Shown: positions 7,276 through 57,228 of the stretch, piece after piece
Layout: each line of letters opens with the position of its first letter
Numbering within the stretch: the stretch's first letter is position 1
Sequence record: MK524177.1
Direction: 5' to 3' (one strand)
Source of the DNA: Escherichia phage PHB10
Length of the DNA: 57,228 nt
Made by a program: the position numbers and the translations under genes
The notes under the pieces: generated by a model
Seen by the model: the letters and a program-made list of their open reading frames with translations, nothing else
What the model was told of the DNA's origin: nothing
Databases searched by the model: none

Positions 7276-7278
7276 CGG

Positions 7279-21032: not shown

Positions 21033-21138
21033 TATTTCCCCCAGAGCGACTTATCGACGCGATAAACAGTAATCGGGAACAGCCAGGGGAACGCAAACAG
21101 CGATACTCTTTGAAACTGCTCCAGTGAAATTCACGCGA

Positions 21139-21363
21139 TTAATAAAACCACTCGTCCGCGCTTTCCCAGGTCTCCTGCAGGATATGTTCGACCTCTTTCT
21201 TGTCACCTCCGAAAACAGTCAAACCATCATTACTGGCACGTTTAATCGTTAGCTGGCAATCATCGAATTGCTTGCTAAGTCTTTTGAGCAGTTCTGACTC
21301 GAGAGCAGGTAAAGCTCCATCAGGAAGTTTCTTCATACGATCAATGGTTAACTCAATTTTCAT
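21139..21363 (-). CDS. DinI-like protein
   Basis: MKIELTIDRMKKLPDGALPALESELLKRL...ILQETWESADEWFY resembles E. coli DinI; start at 21363 with GGAGGG SD. Confidence 0.8.
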   Translation of the reverse strand: MKIELTIDRMKKLPDGALPALESELLKRLSKQFDDCQLTIKRASNDGLTVFGGDKKEVEHILQETWESADEWFY

Positions 21364-21382
21364 TATTCCCTCCGCAACGAAC

Positions 21383-21402
21383 AACTGTATGTATATACAG
21401 TA
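21383..21402 (-). promoter_or_regulatory. LexA (SOS) box overlapping the dinI-like promoter
   Basis: AACTGTATGTATATACAGTA fits CTGT-N8-ACAG; TTGCAA-N17-TATAAA promoter immediately upstream on the minus strand. Confidence 0.75.
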
Positions 21403-21944: not shown

Positions 21945-22901
21945 TCATGTATTTTCAGGACAAAGATGCCGGCAGAACCAGTCAACAACCACATTGATGA
22001 CCTCGGGTTGATACCAGTGATAATCACCATGTTCGGCGCCTTCGATAAGTACGTAGTCCGCTTTATTTCCTTCGTCCAAAAGGCCTTCGTAAAGCGTTGC
22101 GCTCTGCTTTGGTGATACTAATGTATCTTTAGTGCCATGCATTATCAGGAATGGAGGTTTGCGCCCTCTAATATGTCCTATGGGGCTTGCATTTATCGCT
22201 TTCTCAGGTGTAGAAGCGATGGATGCGCCTGGAAAGTTCCTGAAAGCAACACCATTAATTAGCAGTGATTCCGTGACCGCAGGAGACTGATGCACTTTTT
22301 GACGGTGATCAGGAAAACCATCACCTATGTTACGCAGGTCTGATATTCCGTAAAGCGTGGCCACAGCCTGCACATCAGCGGACTGGCTGAGAAAATCGCC
22401 GTGTTCGAATGATTTATCGCCATTTGTGGTACCCAGCATCTGAGCCAGCCATCCTCCAGCAGAATCGCCAAATACACCAATTCGTGAGGGGTCAATACCA
22501 TAATCGGGGGCATGTTGACGAAGGTATCTTACTGCTGCTTTAGCATCTACTATTGGTGCAGGGAAGGTATCCGGGATTGTCCTATATTCTGCCGCAGCAA
22601 CAACAAAGCCAGCCTCCGCCAGGGCCATACGCATTTCCATAAATTTGTTGTGCTCAGCCGTCATAAATCCTCCTCCAGGAAAATAGATGATGGCTGGTTT
22701 CAAAAAACTGGTACGAGGCACCAGAAAAGACATGTGTAAATGCCTGACCGAGCGAGTGCTTTTAACTGTCTCATAAACAACATCGCTGATGTTATCTATC
22801 GGGTTACGCGTCATAGCGACCTGAATAATTTCTGCTCCATGAACATAACCGGGAAGATTGTAATGATCAGAAGATACTGCGCCAGTTTGTTTAGAAATCA
22901 T
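21945..22901 (-). CDS. alpha/beta hydrolase (esterase/lipase-type)
   Basis: GDSAGG nucleophile elbow, HGTKD, oxyanion region FPGGGF. Confidence 0.8.
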   Translation of the reverse strand: MISKQTGAVSSDHYNLPGYVHGAEIIQVAMTRNPIDNISDVVYETVKSTRSVRHLHMSFLVPRTSFLKPAIIYFPGGGFMTAEHNKFMEMRMALAEAGFVVAAAEYRTIPDTFPAPIVDAKAAVRYLRQHAPDYGIDPSRIGVFGDSAGGWLAQMLGTTNGDKSFEHGDFLSQSADVQAVATLYGISDLRNIGDGFPDHRQKVHQSPAVTESLLINGVAFRNFPGASIASTPEKAINASPIGHIRGRKPPFLIMHGTKDTLVSPKQSATLYEGLLDEGNKADYVLIEGAEHGDYHWYQPEVINVVVDWFCRHLCPENT

Positions 22902-23090
22902 AAAAAGCTTCCATTGAAAACAGATCTCCGAAGAATCGAATCCTCTATAACTATATCATCCCGTACGAGTCTAGTGAGATCGGTTCTTTCCCTGTATAAC
23001 TAATATAAATATTCATTCTCAAGACTTATCCATGCAAGTACAGTATTTGTGACAAATCCTGGGAAGTGATGTTTTTTCATTCAGAAACAG

Positions 23091-23525
23091 TTACGTCATT
23101 GGATTGCTGTTATTTTTGTTATATTTCAACCTGTCTTCACGAAATCGATCCGCATTTTCGACGATCCAGGTCCATAGCGGAATCATACGAACAAGCAGTT
23201 CCATACCAGTATCAGACAGCTCGTATTCGACTCGTGGTGGAACTTCATTGAAATCATGGCGGATAACAAGGCCGTCCCGCTCAAGTTGTCGTAATGTGCG
23301 CGTCAGCATGCGCTGAGTCACTCCGTGCATACGCCTACCAATCTCAGCATGGCGTAGTCTTCCATACACGCCAAGAGTGTTGATAACACCCAATGACCAG
23401 CGACTTCCTGCATGGGTCAGCACTTCCCGCCGTAAGCCATCATCATCGTCTCTCAGCCCCTTACAAACATCCTGCGAATACTGAAGAATCTCGTCCCGAT
23501 CCATTTCACTGACTCCCGGTATCAT
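23091..23525 (-). CDS. HxlR-family winged-helix transcriptional regulator
   Basis: Motif WSLGVINTLGVYGRLRHAEIGRRMHGVTQRMLTRTLRQLERDGLV; divergent from the NmrA-like gene; start probably 23525. Confidence 0.75.
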   Translation of the reverse strand: MIPGVSEMDRDEILQYSQDVCKGLRDDDDGLRREVLTHAGSRWSLGVINTLGVYGRLRHAEIGRRMHGVTQRMLTRTLRQLERDGLVIRHDFNEVPPRVEYELSDTGMELLVRMIPLWTWIVENADRFREDRLKYNKNNSNPMT

Positions 23526-23594
23526 ACATGTACCTTCTTTTTTAGCCTGTTGTGAATTGCTAGAGTGGCGCAACAATTCATGTAAGGCCAGATT

Positions 23595-24545
23595 ATGAAC
23601 AAAATTGATCTTAACACTACGTCTGAAAATATCCTCGTGCTCGGTGCCGGTGAGCTGGGCCTCCCCGTTCTGCGAAATCTTGCCCTTCGGGCAAAAGATT
23701 TGAAGGGAACAAAAATCAGCGTGCTGTTGCGCGAAAGTACCTTAACTTCAGATGAACCTGGAAAAAAATTAGTTCTCAAGGAAATCAGAAACCTCGGTAT
23801 TAATATTGTCACAGGTGATCTCGTCATGAGTTCTGTCGACGATTTGGCCAGCCTCTTTGCGCAATTTGACACAGTCGTTGGCTGCACGGGGTACGCGGCT
23901 GGAATAAATACACCGATGAAACTGGCGCAGGCGGCTCTGCAGGCGCGGATTCCACGATATTTTCCATGGCAGTTTGGTGCCGATTTTGATGCCATCGGAC
24001 GCGGCAGTCCACAAGACATCTTCGACGCGCAGATTGACGTGCGTGATTTACTACGCAGCCAGCATGAAACCGAGTGGGTCATCATTTCGACCGGCATCTT
24101 CATGAGCTATTTGTTCGAACCAGACTTCGGTGTGGTCGATCTACAGAACGATACTGTTCACGCACTCGGCAGTATTGACAACACCATGACGCTGACAACA
24201 CCGGATGATATCGGGATGCTAACGGCAGCGATTGTATTTAACACTCCTCGCATTCGGAACGAAATTGTATATATCGCCGGTGATACACTGACCTACGCAG
24301 ATGTGGCAGATAAGCTGCAATCAGCGCTTGGCCGTCCTTTCAGCTGCACGGAATGGAGCGAACAACATCTGATGGATAAACTGGCGCTCAACCCGCAAGA
24401 CATGATGTCTAAGTATCGTGCCGTTTTTGCACAGGGGCGGGGAGTTGCTTGGGATAAAAAGCAGACATTCAATGAACGCCATAACATTCCGGTTACCGAT
24501 GTGGCAGCCTGGATTAATGCAAACCTGATCCCAGGCAGCTCATGA
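23595..24545 (+). CDS. NmrA-family NAD(P)-binding oxidoreductase
   Basis: N-terminal Rossmann motif VLGAGELG; typical HxlR/NmrA divergent pair. Confidence 0.75.
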   Translation: MNKIDLNTTSENILVLGAGELGLPVLRNLALRAKDLKGTKISVLLRESTLTSDEPGKKLVLKEIRNLGINIVTGDLVMSSVDDLASLFAQFDTVVGCTGYAAGINTPMKLAQAALQARIPRYFPWQFGADFDAIGRGSPQDIFDAQIDVRDLLRSQHETEWVIISTGIFMSYLFEPDFGVVDLQNDTVHALGSIDNTMTLTTPDDIGMLTAAIVFNTPRIRNEIVYIAGDTLTYADVADKLQSALGRPFSCTEWSEQHLMDKLALNPQDMMSKYRAVFAQGRGVAWDKKQTFNERHNIPVTDVAAWINANLIPGSS

Positions 24546-24652
24546 TAGACGTATTTAGGCTGCTGTAATAAATACCAGAGTCTTTCTCCTGCCTACCCGA
24601 ATAGGTGATGAGAAAGACTCTGTTCCCCCTGTTGGCACTGATAGTAAAGCGG

Positions 24653-25513
24653 TTAAGCTGTGTGAGCTGAAAACCGGCTCTCCGGTAAACCGGGGAATAC
24701 GGCTGATTTCGCTCTTAGCAGCGCTCCATCATGCCTTGACGGCACAGAAAGACCCACGCTGGCACTAGTACAATACAGCGTTGTGAATGCTTCTCCCGCG
24801 AGTGTCGGGCAAGTGCTCTGAATTCCTGGGGAGGGCAGGATACGATCCGTCGTTCCGTCCGGACGATAACGTACAACACGGCTTCCTCCCCATTCGGCAT
24901 TCCAGATATAGCCCATTGCGTCCACGCAGGAGCCGTCAGGCGCCCCCTTTCCCTCTGTTGCAGTGAACACACGCTGGTTATTCATAGTGGGATAATCACA
25001 GCACAATATACGGCCCTGCATCGAGTCACAGTAATACATCGTGCTGCCGTCCGGACTGAAGCAGATGCTGTTCGGGATGGACACCTCAGGCAGGGGTAGC
25101 GTTTCAATGCTGAGTGTCGCTGCATTTAGCCTGTGAAATTTTCCGATGACTTTCGCGGGGTACCCGTCATCCATGGTCCCGAAGACGAAATTACCCTCAC
25201 GGTCGCACCGACCATCCCCTGTCCGTGTTCCCGGCCCTCCCGGTGACCCCACTACCGGTGTAAAGATACCCGTATTCAGATCGCAGAAGGCGAATCTGGA
25301 CGCCAGCCCCATCAGTAAAACGTCAGAATTTTCAGTAAGTGCAAACGATCCGAGGCGCTCAGGCAGCGACCAGCGCATCACAACACCGGTATCTTCTTCA
25401 AGGGCAAGCAGCTCGCTGCCTTCAATGTCAGTCCAATAAATCCTGCGAGTCCTCTCGCACCAGATTGGGCACTCTCCAAGCAAATTTCTGGTATCAGCAG
25501 CCACTGAAAACAT
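24653..25513 (-). CDS. SMP-30/gluconolactonase/LRE-family protein
   Basis: Beta-propeller-like repeats (GECPIW, DxxG motifs); start MFSVAADT at 25513 with GGGAGA SD. Confidence 0.75.
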   Translation of the reverse strand: MFSVAADTRNLLGECPIWCERTRRIYWTDIEGSELLALEEDTGVVMRWSLPERLGSFALTENSDVLLMGLASRFAFCDLNTGIFTPVVGSPGGPGTRTGDGRCDREGNFVFGTMDDGYPAKVIGKFHRLNAATLSIETLPLPEVSIPNSICFSPDGSTMYYCDSMQGRILCCDYPTMNNQRVFTATEGKGAPDGSCVDAMGYIWNAEWGGSRVVRYRPDGTTDRILPSPGIQSTCPTLAGEAFTTLYCTSASVGLSVPSRHDGALLRAKSAVFPGLPESRFSAHTA

Positions 25514-25611
25514 GTTATTTCTCCCGCATATAAAAGTTTCGCATCGCCTGAACAATAGCTTACGGCCATCTGCACTATGGCAGAGCGCCGTAAGGAGCAT
25601 TCCCCACCCTG

Positions 25612-26085
25612 TCAGGGCAAAAAACGCGCTGAAAGTTTGTCACCAAAAAGCATGATGGCGAGTCCTGCCAGCATGACCAGCATGCCCCCCAGTTTGAGCA
25701 GCGAAACCGGTCGCCTAACAGCACCCAGCAGACCGAAATGGTCAATCATTTGCGACGAGAGTAACTGCCCAACGATTGCCAGCCCTAGCAGAGCTGAAAA
25801 ACCGATTTTCGGTGCCAGCACTACGTAGCTGAATAACGCACAGGCACCGATCAGACCGCCCGCCAGACTCCACGCAGGCTGCGAAGGAATAGCAGCGAGA
25901 GAGGTAAATAACCCTCCACGAAGCAGCGAGTAAATCCCGAGACTCAACGCCCCGGCCGTAAATGAGAAGAATGCGGCGGTAACCGGGTCCCCCCCGAGTC
26001 CTTTTGCAAGCTGACTGTTCAGGGTCGTCTGCAGAGTAATACCAAGACCCGCTGCAAAAGCTATTACGTAATAAATCGCGCTCAT
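25612..26085 (-). CDS. small DMT-superfamily membrane transporter, putative
   Basis: 157 aa, four to five hydrophobic helices. Confidence 0.65.
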   Translation of the reverse strand: MSAIYYVIAFAAGLGITLQTTLNSQLAKGLGGDPVTAAFFSFTAGALSLGIYSLLRGGLFTSLAAIPSQPAWSLAGGLIGACALFSYVVLAPKIGFSALLGLAIVGQLLSSQMIDHFGLLGAVRRPVSLLKLGGMLVMLAGLAIMLFGDKLSARFLP

Positions 26086-26099
26086 GCTGTTTTTCCCTG

Positions 26100-27497
26100 T
26101 CAGTTTGCCTGTACCAGCGGCAGAAATTTCTCCGCAAAGATGTCCGGCTCATACCCGGCGGCAGCAAAAAGGTGTTCGCGTGATTCATCGATGGCAGCAC
26201 GAAGACGCTCGCTGTCCACGCCCAGAACTTTACCGTTCTTCTTGACGATGCGCCCGCCAATCATAACGGTATCGATGTTGCTGCGTTCAGTTGCATGCAC
26301 CACCGTCCCGAAGGCATTCCCGTTCGGGTAGAGATTGAGATCAGCAGCATTAATCAGGATCAGGTCGGCCTGTTTTCCTGGCGTCAGGCTACCCACTTTA
26401 TCCTGTAGCCCGGCACAGGTCGCACCATCGACGGTCGCCGACTTCAGCAGTTGCGCTGCCGGGAGCGTTGTTATTGAATGCCCTGAATCACAGCAGTGCT
26501 GCTTATGCATACCCATTACTCGCTGCAGATAGAACGCCACGCGCATTTCCATAAACATATCTGTGCTGTAAGACGTTTCGTTATCCACGCTCAGGCCAGG
26601 ATTGATGCCATGGCGCTGTGCGGCCTCAATGGCAAACATCCCGCTTTCAATGCCATAGTGCGAATCTGAGCGCGGACAGACGTTCACCCGTACGCCGGCT
26701 TCACGCAGGATTTCCCAGCCCTCATCAGGTAGTGCGGTACAGTGGTTGAAGATATTGTCCGGGCCAAGCAGACCCTGCCGATGCAGAGATTCAAGCTCGG
26801 AGGCCATCTCAGCACCAAAGAATTCGGTCACGATCGGCAACCCCAGCCTGCGCGCTTCAGCCCATAATTCTGGCTCCAGCTGAGCCATAACCCCCAAAGT
26901 CACAAGACCCTCTGGGTTATCCCTGAAATACTTTTCCTGCAGACGCTGCCAGTTACCTGGCCAATGTGCACGATCCCATTCACCCGCAACCGGTGCGCCG
27001 GAAGCATGAATGGCGCGAATGCCGCTATCAAGCAGAGCCTCGACTGCAGCGTCGGAATGCGCTGCGGTACGGCTGTTATGCGAGTTATCGATCATCGTAG
27101 TGATACCCGCGTCAATCGCGCCCAGCGCCGTCAGCAGGTTGCCGACATAGATATCTTCAGGACGGTAATATTTAGCGAACGAAAAGTGCGTGGCGTTGCT
27201 GTAGTCGTCCAGACAGGTGGCGTTGGGGTTGATGCGGCGTAGCTGACCTTCCCAGGCGTGACGATGAGAATCAACCATCCCAGGCATGGCAATCATATTT
27301 TTGGCATCAATAACACGAGCACCTGGCGCGTCAAGGTTCTGACCAACGGCGGTAATGATTGAGCCGTTGATGAGAATGTCACCGCGCTCAATATTACCGA
27401 CGCTATCGTCCATACTCAGTATGGTTGCGCCGCGAATCAGCGTTACCGGCGGGTTTTCCGTCTGTTTCTTAACAATATTTCTGTTGTAATTGGTCAT
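26100..27497 (-). CDS. amidohydrolase-family metal-dependent hydrolase (deaminase-like)
   Basis: 465 aa with metal-binding motif MPGMVDSHRHAWEGQ and conserved downstream His/Asp residues. Confidence 0.8.
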   Translation of the reverse strand: MTNYNRNIVKKQTENPPVTLIRGATILSMDDSVGNIERGDILINGSIITAVGQNLDAPGARVIDAKNMIAMPGMVDSHRHAWEGQLRRINPNATCLDDYSNATHFSFAKYYRPEDIYVGNLLTALGAIDAGITTMIDNSHNSRTAAHSDAAVEALLDSGIRAIHASGAPVAGEWDRAHWPGNWQRLQEKYFRDNPEGLVTLGVMAQLEPELWAEARRLGLPIVTEFFGAEMASELESLHRQGLLGPDNIFNHCTALPDEGWEILREAGVRVNVCPRSDSHYGIESGMFAIEAAQRHGINPGLSVDNETSYSTDMFMEMRVAFYLQRVMGMHKQHCCDSGHSITTLPAAQLLKSATVDGATCAGLQDKVGSLTPGKQADLILINAADLNLYPNGNAFGTVVHATERSNIDTVMIGGRIVKKNGKVLGVDSERLRAAIDESREHLFAAAGYEPDIFAEKFLPLVQAN

Positions 27498-27639
27498 TGT
27501 AATCGTCTCTTTCAGATTAAGAAGGAAAACGATACGCCTCCCGATTAAGATGAAAAAGATGACTAACGTGTTTTCATAATTCAGAATTAACGAATAATAA
27601 TGGTTAACAACTTTACACGATATTCAGGAGAGCAGTCAG

Positions 27640-28527
27640 GTGGATCGCATTCAGGCTATGCAGGTTTTTTTAAGGGTGGCTGAAGCCGGAAGCTTTGTCA
27701 GGGCAGCGGAAACACTGTCCCTGCCTTCCTCTACTGTTACCAGCACCATCAAAAACTTGGAGAAATATCTGCAGGTGCGTCTGCTCAACCGGACCACAAG
27801 GAGGGTCAGCCTTACGTCTGAAGGTCTGCAATACCTGGCGCAATGCAGGGAAATCCTTGCCTTAATTGAACATACTGAAGCCAGTCTGGCTGATTCGAAC
27901 AAGCGCCCCCGGGGCCGCTTACGCGTTGATATGCCCGGCGGTATAGCCCATTTCATCGTTATGCCAAATCTGAAAGAATTCTACAGCCGGTATCCTGATA
28001 TTTACCTGATGATCGGTGTCAGTGACCGGCAAGTTGATCTGGTTCAGGAGGGTGTGGATTGCGTGATCAGAACCGGAGATTTGCTTAGCTCAACACTTGT
28101 TGCCCGTCCGCTTGGGCAGTTCCGCTGGATCACCTGCGCCTCTCCCGAATATCTCAGAAAGTATGGTATTCCACAGTCACCTCAGGATTTATCTCATCAC
28201 AGGGCTATTCATTATTTTTCAGGGCAAAACCGACGTACAGACGAATTGCGTTTTGTACATGGAACAGAAACGCTGTCTGTATCCGTCAGCGGGCAGGCAG
28301 CCGTCAATGAGACGGGACTCTATATAAAAATGTGCCTCGAAGGGTTCGGACTGGCGCAGCTTGCTGAAAACGTTGTAGCAGAACACCTGCAAAAAGGAAC
28401 ACTGGTTGAAGTCCTGGCCGACTGGCAGCCGTCGTCTGTTCCTGTCACTTTGCTTTATCCCCATCAGCGTTTTCTTTCACCCGCCGTACGCGCATTTGCA
28501 GACTGGGTAGATGAAATCTTTAGTTGA
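27640..28527 (+). CDS. LysR-family transcriptional regulator
   Basis: N-terminal HTH (MQVFLRVAEAGSFVRAAETLSLPSSTVTSTIKNLEKYL) and LysR substrate-binding domain. Confidence 0.85.
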   Translation: MDRIQAMQVFLRVAEAGSFVRAAETLSLPSSTVTSTIKNLEKYLQVRLLNRTTRRVSLTSEGLQYLAQCREILALIEHTEASLADSNKRPRGRLRVDMPGGIAHFIVMPNLKEFYSRYPDIYLMIGVSDRQVDLVQEGVDCVIRTGDLLSSTLVARPLGQFRWITCASPEYLRKYGIPQSPQDLSHHRAIHYFSGQNRRTDELRFVHGTETLSVSVSGQAAVNETGLYIKMCLEGFGLAQLAENVVAEHLQKGTLVEVLADWQPSSVPVTLLYPHQRFLSPAVRAFADWVDEIFS

Positions 28528-28725
28528 TATGTCTGTTACAGCCACCCGAGCACATTAAAAGTCAGCAGTATTCAGGATACCTGGCAGGACGGCAGGCTTT
28601 GCTTCGCGGATGCGTCCATTCCGGAACGGCGGCTTCACAGGTAAAGAGCTGTACCCAAAAATTCAATTCTCCGTTTTAAAAGTAACGCCTCCGGCTAAGA
28701 ACCCCAGCCGCATCCGGGGCCTCTT

Positions 28726-29619
28726 TTAACTGAAATGTCTGAGTAAAATATCTTCAAGGATGTGAAAAACGGTCCTGATGCGTTGCGGTACAAGGGTCTG
28801 ATAGGGCCGGTAAAGATAAAGCTGCCAGGTTTCCAGTTTTAGTTCCGGTAAAACATTCACCAGCCTGCCGTCTTCGAGATATTCCCTGCAGGCCAGATTA
28901 CTCGACTGGATCACTACTTTACCGGCTAATGCAGCCTGAATCTCAGACTGGGAGTCGGTAGTAATAAATTCAAGATGTCGTGGTACAAAAGTATCGACGC
29001 CATCGAGCATATATTCGAATACTTTGCCGGTATCAGGATTCAACAGGCCACTGAAAGGATAGCGCTGGCGCAGATCGTCGAAATTTTCCGGCGCACCCAG
29101 CCGCTCAATGAGCCCGGGAGATGCCATCAGCGCGTGATGAACAAGCGTAATGGGCCTGATAATAAAGTTCGGATTTGGCTCCCGCTCAATACGGATCCCC
29201 ATGTCAATGCGGTTCTGAACAGTATCCAGCTTCATCATGTCCAGCCGCCAGTCTATAAACAGCTCAGGATAAGGACGAAGCGCATTCAGAAGCTCATAGA
29301 GTACCTGTTCGTGCCCGGGAAAGCGAAACAGGGTGATCCTCACAATCCCCTTCATCTCATTGTCATCTCTGGCCGTTTGAAACAGGGCCTCTGAATCCTC
29401 AAGCAAACGAAGGGCCCCCGGCAGGAAGAGCTCACCAAAGCTGGTCAGCACAATAGATCGGGTATTCCGCTTAAAAAGTGGCTCGCCGAGCTGATTTTCC
29501 AGTTCAGCAATAGTGCGCGTCACCACTGAAGGAGAAATGGCCAGTCTGACCGCTGCTTCACGAAAATTCATCGTTTCTGCAGCGGCAACAAAAAATTTCA
29601 GCGCATCTAGTTTATTCAT
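28726..29619 (-). CDS. LysR-family transcriptional regulator
   Basis: HTH LDALKFFVAAAETMNFREAAVRLAISPSVVTRTIAELE; divergent from the AKR operon; start probably 29619. Confidence 0.85.
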   Translation of the reverse strand: MNKLDALKFFVAAAETMNFREAAVRLAISPSVVTRTIAELENQLGEPLFKRNTRSIVLTSFGELFLPGALRLLEDSEALFQTARDDNEMKGIVRITLFRFPGHEQVLYELLNALRPYPELFIDWRLDMMKLDTVQNRIDMGIRIEREPNPNFIIRPITLVHHALMASPGLIERLGAPENFDDLRQRYPFSGLLNPDTGKVFEYMLDGVDTFVPRHLEFITTDSQSEIQAALAGKVVIQSSNLACREYLEDGRLVNVLPELKLETWQLYLYRPYQTLVPQRIRTVFHILEDILLRHFS

Positions 29620-29736
29620 GATTGTTGTTTTTTTAGCAATTCTGACTTTCAAAATTAACAATTTTTATGCAACAAATCCAGCCATATACTTAACCGCTCT
29701 AAAACATCACTGAGTTAAGAAAAGTCAGGATTCACT

Positions 29737-30702
<966 letters not shown>

Positions 30703-30717
30703 AAATAAGAGATCGAA

Positions 30718-31233
30718 ATGAAAACAACTGTATTTGTTACCCATCCCAATATTCATCTGTCCCGTGTTAACTCGGCGCTGGCAAATAGTGCAGCTTCACT
30801 GCCCGATATTAATGTACGTTATCTGTATGACATGTATCCGGATGGTAAAATCGACGTGGCCGCTGAACAGGCTGCGCTGGAAAATACCGATCGTATTGTG
30901 CTGCAGTTCCCGATGCAGTGGTACAGCACGCCGCCACTTCTCAAGCAGTGGCTTGATGATGTACTGACCTACGGCTGGTCACATGGTGGCGAAACTCAGG
31001 CGCTGCATGGCAAGCAACTCATGCTGGCAGTTTCGCTCGGTGGTGCTGAGTCTGCGTATCAGCCTGATGGAGCAGCCGGTCATACGGTTAGCGAATATCT
31101 GCTGTCCTTTGAAACAATCTCCGGGTATCTGGGTATGCATTATCTCAAGCCTTTCATTACCGGCGGAAGTGCGACGATCACCGACGGGGAAATTGCGGCA
31201 CAGGCTGAACGCTACAAAACGGTATTAGTCTGA
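30718..31233 (+). CDS. flavodoxin-like NAD(P)H-dependent oxidoreductase
   Basis: 171 aa, flavodoxin-fold-like; 15 nt downstream of the AKR gene (operon). Confidence 0.65.
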   Translation: MKTTVFVTHPNIHLSRVNSALANSAASLPDINVRYLYDMYPDGKIDVAAEQAALENTDRIVLQFPMQWYSTPPLLKQWLDDVLTYGWSHGGETQALHGKQLMLAVSLGGAESAYQPDGAAGHTVSEYLLSFETISGYLGMHYLKPFITGGSATITDGEIAAQAERYKTVLV

Positions 31234-41032: not shown

Positions 41033-41245
41033 ATGTCGCAGGTAATATTTAACGAAGAATGGGTTGTTGGCGCAAGGCTCACAGAAAAAACAGGCCTGAC
41101 CGAACGACAGATTGAGAAGTATCGCCAGGGCTGTTGGGTGGAAGGTGTCCATTTTAAACGGGTTTCTCCTTCCGGAGAAAAAACCTTGCGTGGCACAACC
41201 TGGTACAACTATCCGAGAATTAATCAGTTAATAAGGGATGCGTAA
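41033..41245 (+). CDS. xis: excisionase
   Basis: 70 aa basic protein immediately upstream of and overlapping int. Confidence 0.7.
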
Positions 41246-42485
41246 GATGGCAGCTATGCCTACAGGTGTCGAAATCAGAAACAATAAGATTTGTATCTGG
41301 TTTATGTACCGGGGAAAGCGTTGCCGCGAAATTCTCAAAGGTTGGATTAACACTCCGGCGAACATCAAAAAAGCCGGAAATCTTCGGGCTGTGATCGTTA
41401 GTGAGATCAACCTTGGAGAGTTTGATTACCACCAGCGCTTTCCTTCATCGTCCAGAGCAAAAAAAACCGTAACCACTGTTTCAGTTCAAACCTTTTCAGA
41501 GCTGTGTGAACTGTGGACGAGCATTAAAGAAACCGAAATTAGCGCGAATACCATGCGTAAGACGCGCTCACAACTCGGTACGTTAATGCACATCATTAAC
41601 GGAGATACGCCTGTTTCAACTATACGCCACAGCGACATTCTGAAATACAGGAAGGAGCTGTTGAACGGTGAGACACTTTACCTGGCAAATCCCAGAAGTA
41701 ACAAACAGGGACGCACTGTGCGTACCGTGAACAACTATATATCGCTTCTGTGCTCCCTTCTTCGGTTTGCACACAAATCTGGCTTTATCAGTGGCAAACC
41801 ATTTGAAGGGATCAAGAAACTACACAAAGGGAAAGTAAAACCGGATCCTTTAACGAAGCAGGAGTTTAGTTTGCTTGCGGCATCCGAGCGTGGCCAAAGC
41901 CTCAATATGTGGACGTTCGCAGTTTATACTGGTGTCCGTCATGGAGAGCTTGCAGCTCTTGCCTGGGAAGATATCGACTGGGAAAAAGGTACGGCTCATA
42001 TACAGCGCAACCTTAATGCGCTAGGAATGTTCGTCCCACCAAAAACCGATGCAGGTGATCGAGTTATCACGCTATTAGAGCCGGCACTTGAAGCCTTGAA
42101 AGCACAGCGCAAGCTAACAGCGCTGCAGCCTAAAACCGAAATTGTCTTTAATCATCGCGAGTATGGCGCAGTGGAACATCAAAGCCTGCGATTCGTTTTC
42201 ATACCCCGGATGCGCAAAGGAGAACAGAAAGCCTACTACTCTTTATCGAGCATCGGTGCGAGATTCAACGCAGCTGTAAATCGTGCTGGTATTCGCCGCC
42301 GGAATCCGTACCATACGCGGCATACTTTTGCCTGCTGGCTTTTATCTGCCGGCGCTAACCCGTCTTTCATAGCCAGCCAGATGGGGCATGAAAACGCGCA
42401 AATGGTTTATGAAGTCTACGGTGCGTGGATTGAAGAAATGAATGGCGAACAGGTGCTGATGCTTAACGATAAGCTGGCACGCTGA
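41238..42485 (+). CDS. int: tyrosine integrase (lambda-type with N-terminal arm-binding domain)
   Basis: C-terminal catalytic motifs (R...[28 protein letters not shown]...Y); 415 aa; adjacent to the repeat-flanked att region. Confidence 0.9.
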
Positions 42486-42493
42486 AAAATTTT

Positions 42494-42740
42494 TGCCCCT
42501 ATTATGCCCCTATTGGCTCCGAAGGTAGTAATAAATGCAAGAAAATCAACAAAATACAAAGAAAGAGCAATACAACCTGAATAAGCTACGCTGATTTTGC
42601 CAACTCATTGATATCATTTGTTTTTCATTTAAATCAATTAGTTATAGCATAATAGTTTCTCCCTAAAGCTACCCAGAACTACAATTTTAGTGCCCTTTTT
42701 TTGCCCCTATTTCGCATTTTTGCCCCTAAATTTGCCCCTA
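42494..42740. repeat. attP-like attachment region: five direct TTTGCCCCTATT arm-type repeats flanking an AT-rich core
   Basis: Perfect TGCCCCTA at 42494, 42505, 42702, 42721, 42733 (degenerate copies at 42691, 42772); AT-rich 42513-42690 between clusters; starts 6 nt after the int stop. Confidence 0.5.
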
Positions 42741-42811
42741 TCTTTAGCCAGTGCGCCACCCTTATTCTCCCTGCCCTATACTTTAAGTCTGACATCTGGT
42801 TCGAGGTTTCT

Positions 42812-43486
42812 ATGTGTGGACGCTTTGCACAAGCTCAAACGCGTGAAGAATATCTGGCTTACCTGGCCGATGAAGCCGATCGCGACATCGCATACGACCC
42901 TGAACCTATTGGACGTTACAACGTGGCGCCAGGTACCAAAGTTCTGTTGCTGAGCGAACGTGACGAGCAGTTGCATCTCGATCCGGTCCTGTGGTCTTAC
43001 GCGCCCGGGTGGTGGGATAAAGCACCATTGATAAACGCGCGTGTCGAGACAGCGGCCACCAGCAGGATGTTCAAACCTCTCTGGCAGCATGGCCGGGCAA
43101 TCTGCTTTGCTGATGGATGGTTCGAGTGGAAGAAGGAAGGCGACAAGAAGCAGCCATATTTTATTCACCGGGCAGACGGTCAGCCGATATTTATGGCCGC
43201 GATCGGCAGCATACCGTTTGAGCGAGGCGATGAAGCAGAAGGTTTTCTGATAGTAACGTCTGCCGCTGACAAAGGCCTAGTGGATATTCACGACCGCCGG
43301 CCCCTGGTCCTATCACCAGAAGCGGCCCGGGAATGGATGCGCCAGCATGTTGGAGGAAAAGAAGCGGAAGAGATTGTATCTGACGGCTCTGTACCAGCTG
43401 AGATGTTTGTCTGGCATGCTGTGTCCCGTGAAGTAGGAAATGTAAAAAATCAGGGGAGAAAATTGATAGAACAAATAGATATATAA
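42812..43486 (+). CDS. SOS response-associated peptidase (SRAP / YedK-like abasic-site processing protein)
   Basis: Starts MCGRF (catalytic Cys2 hallmark); about 225 aa. Confidence 0.85.
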   Translation: MCGRFAQAQTREEYLAYLADEADRDIAYDPEPIGRYNVAPGTKVLLLSERDEQLHLDPVLWSYAPGWWDKAPLINARVETAATSRMFKPLWQHGRAICFADGWFEWKKEGDKKQPYFIHRADGQPIFMAAIGSIPFERGDEAEGFLIVTSAADKGLVDIHDRRPLVLSPEAAREWMRQHVGGKEAEEIVSDGSVPAEMFVWHAVSREVGNVKNQGRKLIEQIDI

Positions 43487-43537
43487 TCTGATGTACTTTT
43501 GATGTGTACTTTATATTTGGTTTAATATTATCTCCCT

Positions 43538-43738
43538 TTAAGAAAGAAATATATTTGCAGCCATCGGACCACTAACCCCATTTATACGATAAAATTCAAC
43601 ACGAACGCCAGGTTTTAACGTTTGGCTTTCATTATTACTAAATGCGGAAATATGTAAAAAAACATCTTTCCTGCCATCTGATGGGATAATCAATCCCTTT
43701 CCGCTCTTGAAGTCAAAACTTTTGACAATTCCTGTCAT
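43538..43738 (-). CDS. cold-shock-domain protein (CspA family)
   Basis: [33 protein letters not shown]... RNP-like motifs. Confidence 0.8.
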
Positions 43739-44037
43739 TTTACGAGACAAATATTTTCCTAATGGCAATCCAGATTTGACTATACAGGATTGGTTAATAA
43801 TAGCCAAACCTATTTTATTGGCCTTCCGGAAGGCTAAAATAAAATTTGCTTAATCTTTCAGCACGTGCCTTAATGGTTTGGCTGATTCATTGCGATGATG
43901 AATCTAACTTTTCCAAAAGCCGTTCTCATAACTAGGTGTTATCTCTGATATCCCTCCTTTTGAGTCCATACATATACCAGCATACGTTTCTTATCATGAG
44001 CTTGCTTGTCAGTTTGAAATGTTCAAACGGAGTTTGT

Positions 44038-44256
44038 ATGTCATCTAAAATCATAGGTCTTGTTAAGTGGTTTAACGAAGATAAGGGGTTTGGCTTTATC
44101 TCCCCACTTGATGGAAGTAAAGATGTTCTTGTTCACACTTCTTCCCTGCGGGGAGAAACATTTAATACTCTTTTTGAAGGACAAAAAGTCAAATTCGCTA
44201 TCATAGCTGGAACTAAAGGTCCAATCGCTGCCAATGTAACACTTTGCGATAGATAA
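44038..44256 (+). CDS. cold-shock-domain protein (CspA family)
   Basis: [35 protein letters not shown]; start 44038 with GGAG SD. Confidence 0.85.
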
Positions 44257-44497
44257 TTTTAGATGGTTTACTTAAGCCAGCATGACTTTATCAGTGAAAG
44301 GTGATGTTCGGTTACTCACATCATTACAACAGGCCAGCATATTTACTTACCATCAAGTTTGCTGACCGATGTGATGAAATGCAGGACTGCTGCATGAACA
44401 GTCTCAAAGCAGAAGCTAACTGCTTATAAAATACTAAAGTGCGTAAGAGGTTAGGCAGCCTCCAAAAGCATCACTTCTTATTTTTTAATAATTTTTT

Positions 44498-44662
44498 TTA
44501 GAAGCGCTGGGAAGATTTGAACAAAGCACAGCAGTATGGGCACACCAACTGAGCCCCCTTTTGTACACGATTGTAACTATGTTCGGAATCTTTTGAGCAG
44601 TTTGGACAAGGACATTTTACCAAATAATTTCGGCGGAATTGAGTATTTTTACGTGCAGACAT
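44498..44662 (-). CDS. small Cys-rich zinc-ribbon protein
   Basis: 54 aa from MSARKN with CPCPNC...CPYCC; GGAGAAG SD. Confidence 0.4.
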   Translation of the reverse strand: MSARKNTQFRRNYLVKCPCPNCSKDSEHSYNRVQKGAQLVCPYCCALFKSSQRF

Positions 44663-44810
44663 AGACTTCTCCAGTTCAAATGGACCGTTACAGTACACGT
44701 TAAGACTGTATAATGCTTGTTTTAATTTCGAAAGAGGCAAAAAAAATGAACAAACAGAACTCTTTCGACCACCTGCAGGGGCTAGAAACCCTCAAAATAC
44801 ATGGTGATAT

Positions 44811-45038
44811 ATGAAAAAAGTAATCATTTTTTTTAATGGTAAGCCAAGTAAAGTTATCACTGTGCTTAAAGGTGTGACATCAATACTCGAAGAATATCCT
44901 AATGGAGAAGTGATAAACCTTCAGATAATGTCAGCAGGTTTTCCCTCTTTAACAGGTGACCATGAAGTGGTTTATGTGGCATCAGATCGAGAGCTTACCT
45001 CTCAGGAAATATTAGATGCGGCGCAGAAGTATCTTTGA
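44811..45038 (+). CDS. hypothetical protein (self-contained AT-rich moron)
   Basis: 75 aa ORF with its own terminator. Confidence 0.4.
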   Translation: MKKVIIFFNGKPSKVITVLKGVTSILEEYPNGEVINLQIMSAGFPSLTGDHEVVYVASDRELTSQEILDAAQKYL

Positions 45039-45099
45039 CGCCTGAGATTCAACGCCAACATTCATAAAATCATTATTATAACTACGTTTAATTATTATG

Positions 45100-45124
45100 G
45101 CCTGCTTAATGCAGGCTTTTTTTT
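45100..45124 (+). terminator. intrinsic terminator
   Basis: gcctgc-ttaat-gcaggc followed by T8. Confidence 0.65.
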
Positions 45125-45211
45125 ACCCCCACACAAACAATTATAATTAAGACAAGTGCATCCAACATCATGGCAATATGACTTTATTGCTGAAGCAACC
45201 ATAAGGCTTCC

Positions 45212-45550
45212 ATGAAAATCCTACAATACACAGTATTAATAGTTATTGAAGCACGATCCTCAGATAATAATATCAACCCTCTTCTCTTGGGTCTCTTGCA
45301 TGACAGAAACTATTCAAGTAAGTCAAACCGAGGCGTTAAACTTCCATCCCATGCATTCATTGGTTCAGAGGGGCAGGCAGTTTTAGAGTGGCAGTCTGAA
45401 AAAGATGGAGCAGAAATACTAAAAAAAAGACTCTACCAGATGCTGCATGGAATTACACGTTTAGAAGAGTTTCCCACAGCAATTTTTCTAATGATTTGCC
45501 CAGAAGAAAAAACCTTAACCTTTGTTTCAAGACTTAAAGAAAAAAAATGA
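45212..45550 (+). CDS. hypothetical protein (AT-rich moron)
   Basis: 112 aa ORF. Confidence 0.4.
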   Translation: MKILQYTVLIVIEARSSDNNINPLLLGLLHDRNYSSKSNRGVKLPSHAFIGSEGQAVLEWQSEKDGAEILKKRLYQMLHGITRLEEFPTAIFLMICPEEKTLTFVSRLKEKK

Positions 45551-45926
45551 ACATCGTTATTTCAGCCTTCACCATCTCAAAATGCTGCGATCGTGAAAAC
45601 TGCGAAAGAAAATCATGAGGCACATCAGTAAATATTGTATCATTTGCTAAGCATTGCTGTTACATTCGGTTTAATGATGAATCCTCCTAAGCGGCAGGGC
45701 TAATTAACCTGATGATTTGTATATCAAGCGGCTCATCGTGAATTTCTGAAGCAGCGAGTCACGAGTGGTTAGGTCAATGACTCACCGGGAGGCACCCGGC
45801 ATCATATCCGTAAGCCCCTGTATAATTGCAGGGGCTTATTTACATTACAAAAGCATAGTCTTAGACATATTACTGTTAATACTCATAGCCGATAATTAGG
45901 CTCGAATGAATAGACCGTTTAAAGAA

Positions 45927-47195
45927 TCATCTAACTTTTATTAGGTCTGAATACCTCGTAGTATATCGTGGAGATAACATATCCCGTTTCATCTGCCACT
46001 GCTGCTGTATGCCCTGCCCGGCAAAGTAAAGCGTTCCTTTTCCATCTTTCGCGTTCAAGTGATCGAGCACCTCCATCAACTTATCGCTTCCTGCGCGTGG
46101 AGCGTTCTCATCGAAAAGGTTCAACTGCGCCACCCCTTGGCTGAAAAAATCTCCCAGCATGATTCCAGCCTTTTGATAGCGATAGCCATCCTTCCAGATT
46201 TTGTCCAGGCACTTTACCGCGGCGTTGATTATGTCGCGGGAATCCTGTGTAGGGGTGAGAAGCTTCATGGACGCGCTGTTACCGTAATATGGCTCGTTAA
46301 GCGCAAAGGGAGAGGTTTTCACGAACGCAGAAATAAAGCGGCAGTACTGATGCTCTCCCCGCAACTTTTCTGCGCCTCGGGCCGCATAACTGCAAATGGC
46401 CTGCCTCATTTGTTCGTAATCAGTGACGCGTTCACCGAATGACCTGCTACAGACGATCTCCTGCTTTGCCGGCGCAAATTCCTCCAGCTCGAGACAGGGC
46501 TCGCCGCGCAGCTCCCGGACAGTTCGCTCCAGGACGACATTAAAGTGTTTGCGGATAATCCACGTGCTTTGTTCAGAAAGGTCCAGAGCTGTTTTGATGC
46601 CCATGGCATTCAGCTTCTTACTGATGCGCCTGCCTACGCCCCATACATCTTCTACTGGCACGATGTCGAGCAATCGGCGCTGGCGGTCGATATTGGATAA
46701 ATCAACTACCCCTCCCGTTTGCCGCTGCCATTTCTTCGCGGCGTGGTTGGCCAGCTTGGCCAGTGTCTTTGTCTGGGCAATTCCAATCCCGACAGTCAGG
46801 TGCGTCCGCTTCAGAACGGTAGCGCGGATTTCTTTGCCGAACTCAGTAAGATCCCGGCAATTGCGAACACCTGTTAGGTCACAAAATGCTTCATCGATAC
46901 TGTAAATTTCTACGCGAGGGCTCAACTCCTCCAGTGTGGTCATTACTCGATTCGACATGTCTGCGTACAGCTCGTAGTTACTGCTGAAGCAAACAACCCC
47001 AGCGCGCCGAAATAAGTCCTTTTGCTTGAAGAAAGGCTCTCCCATTGTAATTCCAGCCGCCTTGGCCTCGGCGCTGCGCGCGATTACGCAGCCGTCATTG
47101 TTCGAAAGAACAACCACTGGCCGCCCTTTCAAATCGGGACGAAACACCGTCTCGCATGATGCGTAGAACGAATTCACGTCGCAGAGCGCAAACAT
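45927..47195 (-). CDS. umuC: translesion DNA polymerase V catalytic subunit UmuC
   Basis: Y-family polymerase N-terminus [15 protein letters not shown]; 422 aa; directly downstream of umuD. Confidence 0.9.
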
Positions 47196-47197
47196 AC

Positions 47198-47617
47198 TCA
47201 GCTCGCCGATTTGACGATGAAAGTAACAACGCCGAAAACGTCCAGCGTATCTTCGCTGCCTACAACAATCGGACTGTAGGCGCTATTCATTGGGATGAGT
47301 TGGACATTTGGACGCAACTGCAAACGCTTAACAGTGAATTCCCCTTCAACCGCGGCGATGACAATGTCACCGTGCTCAGCCGTGCGCGAACTATCCACCA
47401 CCAGCAGATCACCGTCGCTTATCCCGGCTTCGATCATTGAATCCCCCGCGGCTTTGACGAAATATGTAGAGCTCGGGTGAGCGACAAGTAACTCATTGAG
47501 ATCGATACGCTGTTCAACGTAATCAGCTGCGGGGCTTGGGAAACCACACTGTACTAAGTCACTGAAAAGCGGAAGAGCGATAATATCTCGCAGTTCTGTT
47601 GGCCTGATGAATTCCAT
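47198..47617 (-). CDS. umuD: UmuD (LexA-like S24 peptidase, polymerase V accessory subunit)
   Basis: 139 aa from MEFIRP; Ser-Lys dyad context (AAGDSM ... VKRL). Confidence 0.9.
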
Positions 47618-47632
47618 TGCACACACCTCAAA

Positions 47633-47652
47633 TACTGTTTTTATATACAGTA
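47633..47652 (-). promoter_or_regulatory. LexA (SOS) box upstream of umuDC
   Basis: TACTGTTTTTATATACAGTA fits CTGT-N8-ACAG, 16 nt upstream of the umuD start. Confidence 0.8.
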
Positions 47653-47858
47653 GTTTTATTTGTAAGTGTCCGCAAGATACAGGCCCTATCGTCACTGCTT
47701 AAAGCTTCGCCGTTTCGTTTCTAAGTTTATCTCTCGTTTCGAATTATCTCTTTTGTAAATTTTTCAATAATGGCGCAGATGTAAGCAGATTTGAGGGAGA
47801 CAAAGCCCGTTAAATGCCAGAACGGGCTGCGACTGAAAGCTAAGTCTTCATGATTCCG

Positions 47859-49406
47859 CTATTTTTGCTTAAGCTCCTGGAGCTCTTTCTGTGTTGCCTC
47901 CAGCTGTTTAATGACGTAGTTCAGTGCCAACACGGTATCAAGCATGATGACGTTGCTATCCAGCGCTAACGTATCGTCAGCATCAACCCTGTTGCCTTCA
48001 CCATCAAATTTCGGTGCTGCAGGGACCAACGTTACGTACTCACTGTCGATCTTCATGACATCCTGAGCGATAACACCTCGGCGAACTCTCTCCAAAGGGT
48101 CATCGTTGTATACGTAAGTTGCTGGCAGGAATTTCTTGATATTCTCGTATGACTGATAACCATCATCGTATTTCACACTATGTTTCAGTTCGATATCACA
48201 GTTTGGTTGTTTAGAGAAAATATAATTGCCCCCAAAACCACCACTGCCTGAAACTGAAATATCCGCGGTAACGGTATTAAACGAGAAAATACGCGTTCCT
48301 GCAGATCCGCTATCACCAATGGTTACAAGTTCAATAGATGGCCAGTTGCTTTTCCCCTGGGAAATAGATCCAAGAGCGGTAACGGCGTGATACCCCCCTG
48401 AGCAATAGGTATGCCACCTGCCAAATGGTACAAATCCACTATCGTTTGGAGTTGATAGGTTTGGGCGTGCAAACGATGTGTTCGTGCTGTAGCCGTTAAC
48501 AATATCTTGGTAACCGCCACCGTACCCCTCACCGGGGCCGATATGACTTTTAGACTGAAACGCACCATAAGGGTACCAGCGGAAATCAGCACCGGAGCTT
48601 ACACCGTCAAAGATGTTCATTTGTACCCGAGCTAAATCAGTTCCCGCGCCGCGTACTGCACCGAGCCGCCAGGTGCCCGAATAATAGTTACCAGAAAGCC
48701 AGTTAACATAATTCTCGGCCGGACCATCGGAGCCAACATTACCTAAAGTAATGGCTTTATTACCCCCACTACCAGTAGCGATACCGACCTCATTACCTGC
48801 GGTTGAGATTATGCTTCCTGTAACAGTACCGCCTAACTTTCCTTCAATGGTGTTAAGACGCGAATCATTCCCGGCCGCCACGGTTCCGGCAGCCGTTCCA
48901 ACGTTTTTGGTGGCGCTGTCTCCCAAATCGAGGTTTTTGCGAGCGTCTGCGGCATTCGTTGCGCCGGTTCCGCCGTCTGCGACAGCAAGCGCACCGTTGC
49001 TCCCTTTCTGTGCCAGTTTACCGATGCCAGGGATGGTTACGGAGGTGCCGTTGATGGTTACGGTGATGCTCTGATTGGCTGAGGTTGTGGCGAACGTATC
49101 CCACGCGCCAATATTCTCGTCATACTCTTTGATGAGCTGCGACATGGCCTGTGCCAGTCCGTCGACAGAGATATTGTCGGACACCAGGATTCCATACTTC
49201 TGGCCGCTCAACGCCGGGGAAGCAGCTGGCGTAACCGTCATTGACGTGGCGCTGTTCACGGATGAAATCTGGAACATCTGAACCGGGTTAGACATGACGA
49301 TAATCGTCTGGCCAGCGCGAACCTGGCTGGCCGGTGCCGTCCAGTTCGTGCCCGTGCCGGTGGCGGTGTTTCCGTTAATGGCGATGGTGCCAGTGTTATA
49401 AAGCAT
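47859..49406 (-). CDS. tail fibre protein with C-terminal intramolecular chaperone-like domain
   Basis: Gly/Thr/Ser-rich repeats; C-terminal region ending in coiled coil LEATQKELQELKQK; start MLYNTG at 49406 with GGAGAA SD. Confidence 0.65.
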   Translation of the reverse strand: MLYNTGTIAINGNTATGTGTNWTAPASQVRAGQTIIVMSNPVQMFQISSVNSATSMTVTPAASPALSGQKYGILVSDNISVDGLAQAMSQLIKEYDENIGAWDTFATTSANQSITVTINGTSVTIPGIGKLAQKGSNGALAVADGGTGATNAADARKNLDLGDSATKNVGTAAGTVAAGNDSRLNTIEGKLGGTVTGSIISTAGNEVGIATGSGGNKAITLGNVGSDGPAENYVNWLSGNYYSGTWRLGAVRGAGTDLARVQMNIFDGVSSGADFRWYPYGAFQSKSHIGPGEGYGGGYQDIVNGYSTNTSFARPNLSTPNDSGFVPFGRWHTYCSGGYHAVTALGSISQGKSNWPSIELVTIGDSGSAGTRIFSFNTVTADISVSGSGGFGGNYIFSKQPNCDIELKHSVKYDDGYQSYENIKKFLPATYVYNDDPLERVRRGVIAQDVMKIDSEYVTLVPAAPKFDGEGNRVDADDTLALDSNVIMLDTVLALNYVIKQLEATQKELQELKQK

Positions 49407-49420
49407 ATTTTCTCCAGGCA

Positions 49421-49447
49421 ATAAAAAACCCCGCCGAGGCGAGGTTT
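49421..49447 (-). terminator. terminator-like GC hairpin after the small lipoprotein gene
   Basis: GC hairpin followed on the minus strand by a U-run, just upstream of the fibre RBS. Confidence 0.4.
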
Positions 49448-49464
49448 GCATTCAAAGTCGTGAG

Positions 49465-57104: not shown

Positions 57105-57228
57105 GGTGCGTATGCCTGTTTGAAGGTTGCTTTTATAGTCATCACTTTGCTGGATAGCGGCTGGACTTTAATGGAATCAGCTTCAATCCGGTATAAACCG
57201 GTTTCGCCGACAGGAGACGTCCAGATAA
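57105..57228 (-). CDS. minor tail protein M, C-terminal portion (gene start lies beyond window end)
   Basis: Open frame ...IWTSPVGETGLYRIEADSIKVQPLSSKVMTIKATFKQAYAP* ending at TGA overlapping the L start; resembles the lambda gpM C-terminus as I recall it. Confidence 0.6.

Follow-up and report, generated by a model that had tools for sequence, protein, structure and literature searches.

The window analysed here is the whole stretch of 57,228 nucleotides of Escherichia phage PHB10 held in sequence record MK524177.1. The locus in question lies at 42.5-47.7 kb, where an umuD-umuC operon of the DNA polymerase V (Pol V) type and a convergent SRAP gene of the YedK type are found between the phage attachment site and the tail fibre gene. 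This region is very probably the att-proximal accessory ('b') region of a lambdoid temperate Enterobacter phage, and comprises three independent pieces, namely umuDC, the SRAP gene and an insert of low guanine-plus-cytosine (GC) content between the two.

On one side, the locus is bordered by xis (41033-41245), a Rac-IntR-type integrase gene (41238-42485) and the attP region (42486-42750, plus strand), in which arm-type repeats flank a copy of the 5′ end of ttcA. The arm-type direct repeats, (T)TTGCCCCTA or TTTGCCCCTA, occur twice at 42490-42513, just past int, and three times at 42698-42742. The phage copy of the first 18 ttcA codons lies between them (ATG at 42536, MQENQQNTKKEQYNLNKLR*). The block common to the phage and host sites falls inside this copy at approximately 42530-42584; similarity to the E. 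coli Rac intR-ttcA junction stops at position 42584, and prophage relatives are homologous from about 42530 onwards. Rac inserts at the 5′ end of ttcA, and the attP of the window resembles Rac in this respect. In a lysogen integrated at ttcA, the host ttcA promoter would be displaced to some 230 nt upstream of the SRAP gene, pointing in the same direction. On the other side are the tail fibre gene (47859-49451, minus strand), cor, J and the rest of the tail cluster. An earlier reading of the window made from its letters (the sequence-only reading) had placed umuDC between the tail fibre and att, and this is where it lies. In lambda, too, the b region from the tail fibre genes to attP is made up of non-essential genes; however, the usual cargo there is of the lom/bor type or an effector, whereas the cargo of the window is for DNA-damage tolerance.

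The umuDC operon, the SRAP gene and their control regions

The umuD gene (47198-47617, minus strand) encodes a protein of 139 aa that scores 162.2 bits against NF007621 (cutoff 110) and 106.5 bits against PF00717. The umuC gene (45927-47195, minus strand) encodes the Pol V catalytic subunit of 422 aa, with a score of 868.5 bits against NF002955 (cutoff 431) and a match that spans residues 1-422 of 422. All Pol IV models scored under their own cutoffs on UmuC in the same NCBIfam profile search. The two genes are on the same strand and separated by 2 nt, with the umuD stop codon at 47198-47200 and the start of the umuC ATG at 47195. No frameshift or internal stop was found in either gene in the reading frames of the window. 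The position proposed for umuD-umuC by the sequence-only reading (47617..45927) was thus exact, with both genes intact and family cutoffs exceeded. Disruption of umuDC or the SRAP gene had been raised beforehand as an objection; it was looked at, and all frames are uninterrupted.

Alignment to structures 8gmt and 1umu, with residue counting, places the Cys24-Gly25 cleavage site and the Ser60/Lys97 dyad in the phage UmuD, residues 1-137 of which align with the E. coli UmuD structure 8gmt (E = 5e-70). The UmuC translation contains the catalytic acidic residues D6, D101 and E102, the steric-gate residue Y11 and the beta-clamp motif QLNLF, and its palm domain can be aligned to Dpo4. Conversion to UmuD′ and Pol V function are predicted for the phage umuDC.

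The closest well-known counterpart is the umuDC operon of E. coli K-12, in which the two genes come in the same order and encode proteins of the same length (139 and 422 aa), 79% (UmuD) and 84% (UmuC) identical to those of the window. The features Cys24-Gly25, Ser60, Lys97, D101/E102 and QLNLF of the K-12 operon are all found in the window copies. In contrast, the K-12 operon is located between hlyE and dsbB, and that of the window in a phage b region, from tail fibre to attP. By its 84% identity to K-12, the window UmuC is assigned to the chromosomal UmuC branch. The majority of plasmid UmuC matches (about 4,970 of the best 5,000) fall in the 60-80% identity band, and the SamB/MucB-like rows among the plasmid matches listed are 61-64% identical to the window UmuC (samB, 64%). 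Closer plasmid UmuCs account for approximately 33 records among the best 5,000, including a few Enterobacter plasmids at 80-94% and an Enterobacter hormaechei plasmid at 94%. The samAB, mucAB, impAB and rumAB operons of plasmids and integrative and conjugative elements are likewise umuDC-type operons on mobile elements that spread mutagenic translesion synthesis. However, they form a separate branch (about 61-64% identical) and reside on conjugative elements instead of phages. These Pol V operons are LexA-regulated.

A LexA operator precedes umuDC at 47633-47652 on the minus strand (TACTGTTTTTATATACAGTA; 20 nt, two mismatches to the consensus). Read on the gene strand the box is TACTGTATATAAAAACAGTA, which is identical to the K-12 umuDC operator, and its end lies 15 nt from the umuD ATG. 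Only two LexA-like sites with up to three mismatches exist in the whole 57 kb window, this one and a second at 21383-21402 (dinI), and none appeared in 100 shuffles of the window. The canonical SOS box that the sequence-only reading had reported at 47633..47652 is therefore both identical to the K-12 operator and unexpected by chance. In related umuDC loci the CTG/CAG cores of the box are unbroken (81/81), the bases around the box being variable, and the distance from box to ATG is 15 nt in 75 of the 81 and 14-20 nt in the remaining six. A putative promoter occupies 47647-47675 (minus strand), with a -35 element TTGCGG (47675-47670), a 17-nt spacer and a -10 element TACTGT (47652-47647) within the operator. 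The K-12 umuDC promoter has matching geometry (TTGATC, 17 nt, TACTGT), and a -35-like TTGCG is conserved 17 nt upstream in the related loci, where the surrounding bases vary. The conservation of box cores and spacing while flanks vary, together with a geometry as in K-12, argues strongly for repression of the phage umuDC by LexA.

The SRAP gene (42812-43486, plus strand) encodes 224 aa with an MCGRF start, and scores 174.1 bits against PF02586 (cutoff 27.1) and 462.8 against NF007413 (cutoff 349). The sequence-only reading had described a YedK-like gene immediately beside att; its start is indeed 70 nt past the last arm-type repeat. The protein is 84% identical to K-12 YedK over its full length and aligns end to end with solved YedK structures (E of about 1e-132). 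Alignment with 6kcq and 2icu and residue counting show Cys2 (right after Met1), Asn75, Glu105 and His160 to be present. This is a full YedK orthologue, and is predicted to crosslink to abasic sites.

A conserved leader (42744-42811, plus strand) precedes the gene, with a -10-like element CCCTATACTTTAA (TATACT at 42777-42782, C at -13) and a Shine-Dalgarno sequence GAGG at 42803-42806. The conserved part of the leader measures 50-70 nt, and 34 of 37 relatives keep its -10-like CCCTATACTTT, the sequences further upstream being of at least four unrelated kinds. A -10 element with a C at -13 is preferred by sigma-S. The leader of K-12 yedK is homologous to that of the phage gene, including the -10-like element and the ribosome-binding site; however, K-12 yedK is not adjacent to umuDC, whereas the window SRAP gene is phage-borne and paired with it. 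A table of RpoS-controlled genes of strain EDL933 gives a value of 43 for E. coli yedK (PMC2907692). No LexA box was found before the SRAP gene, there being no site with up to six mismatches and no CTG-N10-CAG between int and the SRAP start (42486-42811). The leader thus appears to be LexA-independent with a -10 of the sigma-S type, and the SRAP gene may be under sigma-S control.

The second LexA box belongs to a dinI-like gene (gene 21145-21363, unit with box 21145-21402, minus strand) whose 73-aa product scores 79.5 bits against PF06183 (cutoff 24.2) and falls in phrog_189. Its ETWESADEWF motif, in the acidic C-terminal helix, aligns to E. coli DinI. The box, at 21383-21402 with two mismatches, overlaps a TTGCAA-17-TATAAA promoter, and dinI is predicted to be the second LexA-controlled unit of the window. 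The sequence-only reading had counted three SOS-linked functions in the element. That count holds for umuDC and dinI, which have LexA boxes, but not for SRAP, which has none. As SRAP lacks a LexA box, the sequence supports SOS control for umuDC and dinI only, and the link of SRAP to the SOS response consists in its family name and its gene neighbours (PMC3765255).

The cassette in other phages and prophages

IMG/VR was scanned for relatives of UmuC, which returned at least 600 contigs, and the best 80 (UmuC 95-100% identical to that of the window) were fetched and compared. SRAP is present in 51 of the 80, always convergent with umuC, at a spacing that ranges from a 4-nt overlap to 2.7 kb, and is the last gene before the contig end in 17 of the 51. 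Of the 29 contigs without SRAP, 26 end less than 1.9 kb past umuC. SRAP therefore follows umuC convergently in 51 of approximately 54 informative contigs. The identity of tail gene J in these relatives ranges from 30 to 100%, and umuDC/SRAP is found beside differing att sites and integrase types. In an E. coli prophage in dcp the order is dcp′, SRAP, a hypothetical gene, umuC, umuD, tail fibre and J, the block lying beside the truncated dcp. An exact search with the operator and leader matched six genomes, all six of them Enterobacter, and the host genus is likely to be Enterobacter. In some of the IMG/VR relatives, C-terminal integrase fragments occur just beyond the att-SRAP junction, as is expected where a new phage has inserted beside an older prophage remnant at the same site.

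The operon is also carried by complete phages from sewage. Salmonella phage vB_SosS_Oslo has the order J, tail fibre, umuD, umuC, int, with the same LexA box and a UmuC 91% identical to that of the window, and Enterobacter phage vB_EclS_CobraSix has tail spike, umuD, umuC, int, xis (UmuC 93% identical). Klebsiella phage ST846-OXA48phi9.2 encodes UmuD, UmuC (84%) and, at its very end, a convergent 'putative SOS response-associated peptidase YedK'; the UmuC of Cronobacter phage ENT39118 is 75% identical. In contrast to the window, CobraSix and Oslo are without SRAP, and all four phages are without its csp/ynfU insert and differ in integrases and att sites. The GenBank UmuD is annotated at only 79 aa in Oslo (7260-7676) and 101 aa in CobraSix (4696-5001). 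A closer inspection of Oslo reveals a full 139-aa open reading frame (ORF) behind the LexA box, so the deposited Oslo start looks too far downstream.

In the window, then, the cargo lies between tail fibre and attP, and its content is variable among the 80 relatives, as in a b region. On the comparative evidence we regard it as settled that the umuDC/SRAP module is phage cargo and not host DNA. Phage-borne umuDC and YedK beside att are real, common and already documented, and the locus falls within these precedents. That SRAP genes are found next to umuC-umuD, and also in prophages, was reported in 2013 by Aravind and colleagues (PMC3765255). A 2019 study of a K. pneumoniae prophage family found a conserved core of int and umuCD (PMC6908951), and a 2021 survey listed UmuCD among Klebsiella prophage cargo (PMC8617712). 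Covalent shielding of abasic sites is attributed to YedK and to human HMCES by studies cited in PMC8357350. PHROGs has families for UmuD, UmuC and SRAP.

SRAP genes were also observed in other settings. K-12 yedK (NC_000913.3, 2009821-2012780) has the same orientation as the integrase remnant intG ('cryptic prophage PR-G') and lies 2 kb upstream of it; the C-terminus of intG resembles residues 381-414 of the window integrase (44% identity, E = 8e-6). K-12 yedK may itself be what is left of the edge of a lambdoid prophage. A truncated SRAP gene that the record leaves unannotated (NC_010393.1, about 43494-44081; residues 1-180, 91% identical) lies downstream of sseI in Gifsy-2, close to the att-proximal end. 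Other phage backbones have a gtrABC-type O-antigen glucosylation cluster between SRAP and the integrase (one locus, 11268-17961), and the E. coli 30EVA1 prophage has SRAP with gtr genes and no umuDC under the match. This pairing with gtr clusters points to SRAP being a recurrent b-region gene by itself.

Proposed role of the cassette and competing explanations

In a lysogen, umuDC would be silent under LexA until DNA damage produces activated RecA (RecA*) and LexA is cleaved. UmuD would then be made and cut by RecA* at Cys24-Gly25 to give UmuD′, and UmuD′2C with RecA-ATP would constitute Pol V, bypassing abasic sites and ultraviolet (UV) lesions at the cost of mutation. The LexA-controlled phage DinI homologue would temper RecA*-dependent processing of UmuD. 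The SRAP protein would crosslink via Cys2 to abasic sites in single-stranded DNA, limiting strand cleavage and mutagenic bypass. The near-obligate pairing of umuDC and SRAP suggests a balanced handling of abasic sites. As the genes are intact, conserved and kept in the phage genomes of sequenced relatives, it is reasonable to consider the element a vehicle for error-prone repair capacity. The beneficiary that we favour is the lysogen, through damage tolerance and inducible mutagenesis, rather than the phage, because of the position beside att and the tight operator.

Several observations weigh against this account. A generic promoter scan made no call at the umuDC promoter, which is instead derived from conservation and the K-12 comparison and whose hexamers only weakly match consensus. 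The SRAP promoter was not called by the scan and was derived in the same way, and its assignment to sigma-S is based on the -10-like motif and on data for the E. coli homologue. Since none of the 80 relatives is distant (UmuC at least 95% identical), shared descent, instead of selection for co-function, may explain the linkage of SRAP and umuDC. Two further points bear on the viability of the 57-kb element as a phage: some 60 nt (about 20 codons) of tail gene M are missing across the window ends, and the nin region holds a 9.3-kb metabolic block.

The alternative that survives best, unlikely on balance as we judge it, is that the cassette serves the phage. Pol V and SRAP would let damaged phage DNA replicate at induction or infection, a self-supplied Weigle reactivation, most of all in Enterobacter without another umuDC. 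Weigle reactivation of lambda requires host umuDC. Prophage induction and derepression of umuDC would occur in the same SOS-induced cells, and the operon has been kept in sequenced phage genomes. Moreover, the putative phage repressor (34021-34425; HTH_3, 134 aa) is without an S24 self-cleavage domain, UmuD being the sole S24 protein in the window, and with a LexA box on the dinI unit, LexA is seemingly wired into the phage programme. Gifsy phages are induced through LexA and an antirepressor, and by analogy the window phage may be induced in a similar manner. An 80-aa ORF (orf80; phrog_340, function unassigned) lies downstream of dinI, within 20790-21402, and carries no antirepressor annotation in PHROG. 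However, a tight operator and slow Pol V activation fit the lytic cycle poorly: K-12-type umuDC operators are among the tightest LexA sites, and activation of Pol V takes tens of minutes. Lysogenic-conversion genes also typically lie where the cassette does, beside att and not in the early or late operons. Benefit to the lysogen therefore remains our preferred explanation.

It is improbable that the genes are neutral passengers, taken from a chromosome by imprecise excision and carried without selection. Such excision adds host DNA precisely next to att, UmuC is of the chromosomal type (84% to K-12) with most plasmid copies distant, and in E. coli both umuDC and yedK are chromosomal. However, the ORFs are all intact, UmuC is 95-100% identical in the best 80 of at least 600 contigs while J spans 30-100%, the operator is kept though its flanks drift, and the cassette is found beside differing att sites and integrase types. 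Intact ORFs, operator conservation and varied att and integrase contexts point to purifying selection and to the spread of the module among phage backbones.

We consider it very unlikely that the phage SRAP acts in the way that PMC3765255 proposes for phage-encoded SRAPs. The proposal was made explicitly for such proteins, and near-obligate linkage to umuDC does suggest a part in the damage response. Nevertheless, the protein is 84% identical to YedK with all crosslinking-site residues kept, YedK and HMCES shield abasic sites according to the studies cited in PMC8357350, and the gene lies outside the immunity region without a LexA box.

The least probable explanation is that the region is host chromosome adjoining a prophage, for instance between tandem prophages: the window is no perfect circle, some relatives have integrase fragments past SRAP as in tandem or remnant prophages, and IMG/VR prophage boundaries are predictions, but complete phage genomes have the same genes between tail fibre and int, the E. 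coli block is inside a prophage next to truncated dcp, and DNA from attP to tail fibre belongs to the phage even at a tandem junction. The window carries head, tail, lysis, Q, O/P, cII-like and repressor genes and reads as a nearly complete, circularly permuted lambdoid genome. Its two ends both lie within tail gene M, the first (1-165) encoding the N-terminal half of the product and the second (57105-57228) the C-terminal part, and a perfect circle was ruled out by the gap in that gene. A tandem-prophage junction would look the same as a nearly complete permuted genome. Under either arrangement, what lies between attP and the tail fibre is the b region of a phage.

A broader and more speculative proposal, which we think doubtful, is that Pol V in the Enterobacter cloacae complex is mainly supplied by prophages. 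The mobile cassette would consist of LexA-controlled umuDC and a convergent sigma-S-dependent YedK that restrains Pol V at abasic sites, recombining among lambdoid phages with different integrases and receptors, and E. coli yedK would possibly be a relic of a prophage edge.

Temperate phages with a complete SOS-controlled Pol V operon can carry inducible mutagenesis between strains of clinically important Enterobacter, and phage-borne Pol V bears on the evolution of antibiotic resistance under stress. The pairing of umuDC and YedK also offers a natural system for studying the balance of abasic-site shielding and mutagenic bypass. The genes, the operator, phage carriage and their mutual linkage are already in public annotation and the literature, and the locus is one more example.

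The low-GC insert and other features of the window

The segment between SRAP and umuC is 2.4 kb long with a GC content of 38%, compared to 53% for umuC. It begins with a cspF/cspH-like cold-shock-domain gene (43538-43750, minus strand; TTG start at 43750 or ATG at 43738), which scores 116.9 bits against NF012007 CspF (111 required) and matches PF00313. A cspA-type gene with a cspA-thermoregulator-like mRNA follows at 43911-44310 (plus strand; coding sequence 44038-44256, 72 aa; RF01766 79.5 bits against a gathering score of 78; PF00313 89 bits), and may represent cold-inducible phage cargo. Next are a gene for a zinc-binding protein of the ynfU family (44498-44740, minus strand; likely start ATG 44662; PF23499 99 bits; NF038384 72.6 against 36) and orf75 (44811-45038, plus strand; phrog_3425, E = 7.5e-32), a phage protein of unassigned function that is 96-100% conserved across the 13 relatives having the insert. 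The last coding sequence, orf112 (45212-45550, plus strand), is present in 14 of the 80 relatives and has no match in Pfam, NCBIfam, PHROG or PADLOC. The csp and ynfU genes of the Qin/Rac type thus have homologues in this mosaic insert. No defence-system assignment was made by PADLOC for any b-region protein. An anti-phage reading of the insert was dropped, as the csp genes are only similar at the domain level to a retron cold-shock effector and there is no nearby reverse transcriptase.

An STnc100-like RNA completes the segment (45642-45843, plus strand; RF02076 52.7 bits against a gathering score of 47). It ends in a GC-rich hairpin, AAGCCCCTG-N7-CAGGGGCTT, at roughly 45816-45840 as counted by hand and 84 nt from the umuC stop, which may act as a bidirectional terminator. 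A second STnc100-like RNA (17258-17463, minus strand, 74 bits) is located between the antiterminator gene Q and holin, the expected place of a late-leader RNA. The presence of STnc100-like copies at Q-holin and in the b region suggests that the low-GC insert came from the Q-to-lysis moron region of another lambdoid phage. The insert is found in approximately 13 of the 80 relatives, and in several others SRAP directly abuts umuC. With few relatives carrying it and others abutting, the low-GC segment is a later arrival, inserted into a pre-existing umuDC/SRAP pair.

Between dinI and replication gene P is a metabolic block of about 9.3 kb (21945-31233) made up of chromosome-type genes, which encode a BD-FAE alpha/beta hydrolase, an SMP-30/gluconolactonase (SGL), an amidohydrolase, two LysR regulators, an aldo/keto reductase and a flavodoxin-like protein. 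It is an unusual nin-region cargo and brings the genome to about 57 kb. The block has no match in GenBank phages; three IMG/VR contigs have just its LysR-amidohydrolase-SGL part, without these phage flanks. That the window might be a mix of host and phage DNA, owing to the metabolic enzymes at 21.9-31.2 kb, was considered and set aside, as the O, P, cII-like and cI-like genes at 31.5-34.4 kb speak otherwise. With phage early genes beyond it, the block is an insertion in the early/nin region, which leaves the b-region status of the umuDC locus unaffected.

Finally, a gene for tRNA-Arg (anticodon TCT) is located at 17805-17881 on the minus strand, with Q on one side and the lysis genes on the other, an arrangement shared by many lambdoid and Stx phages.

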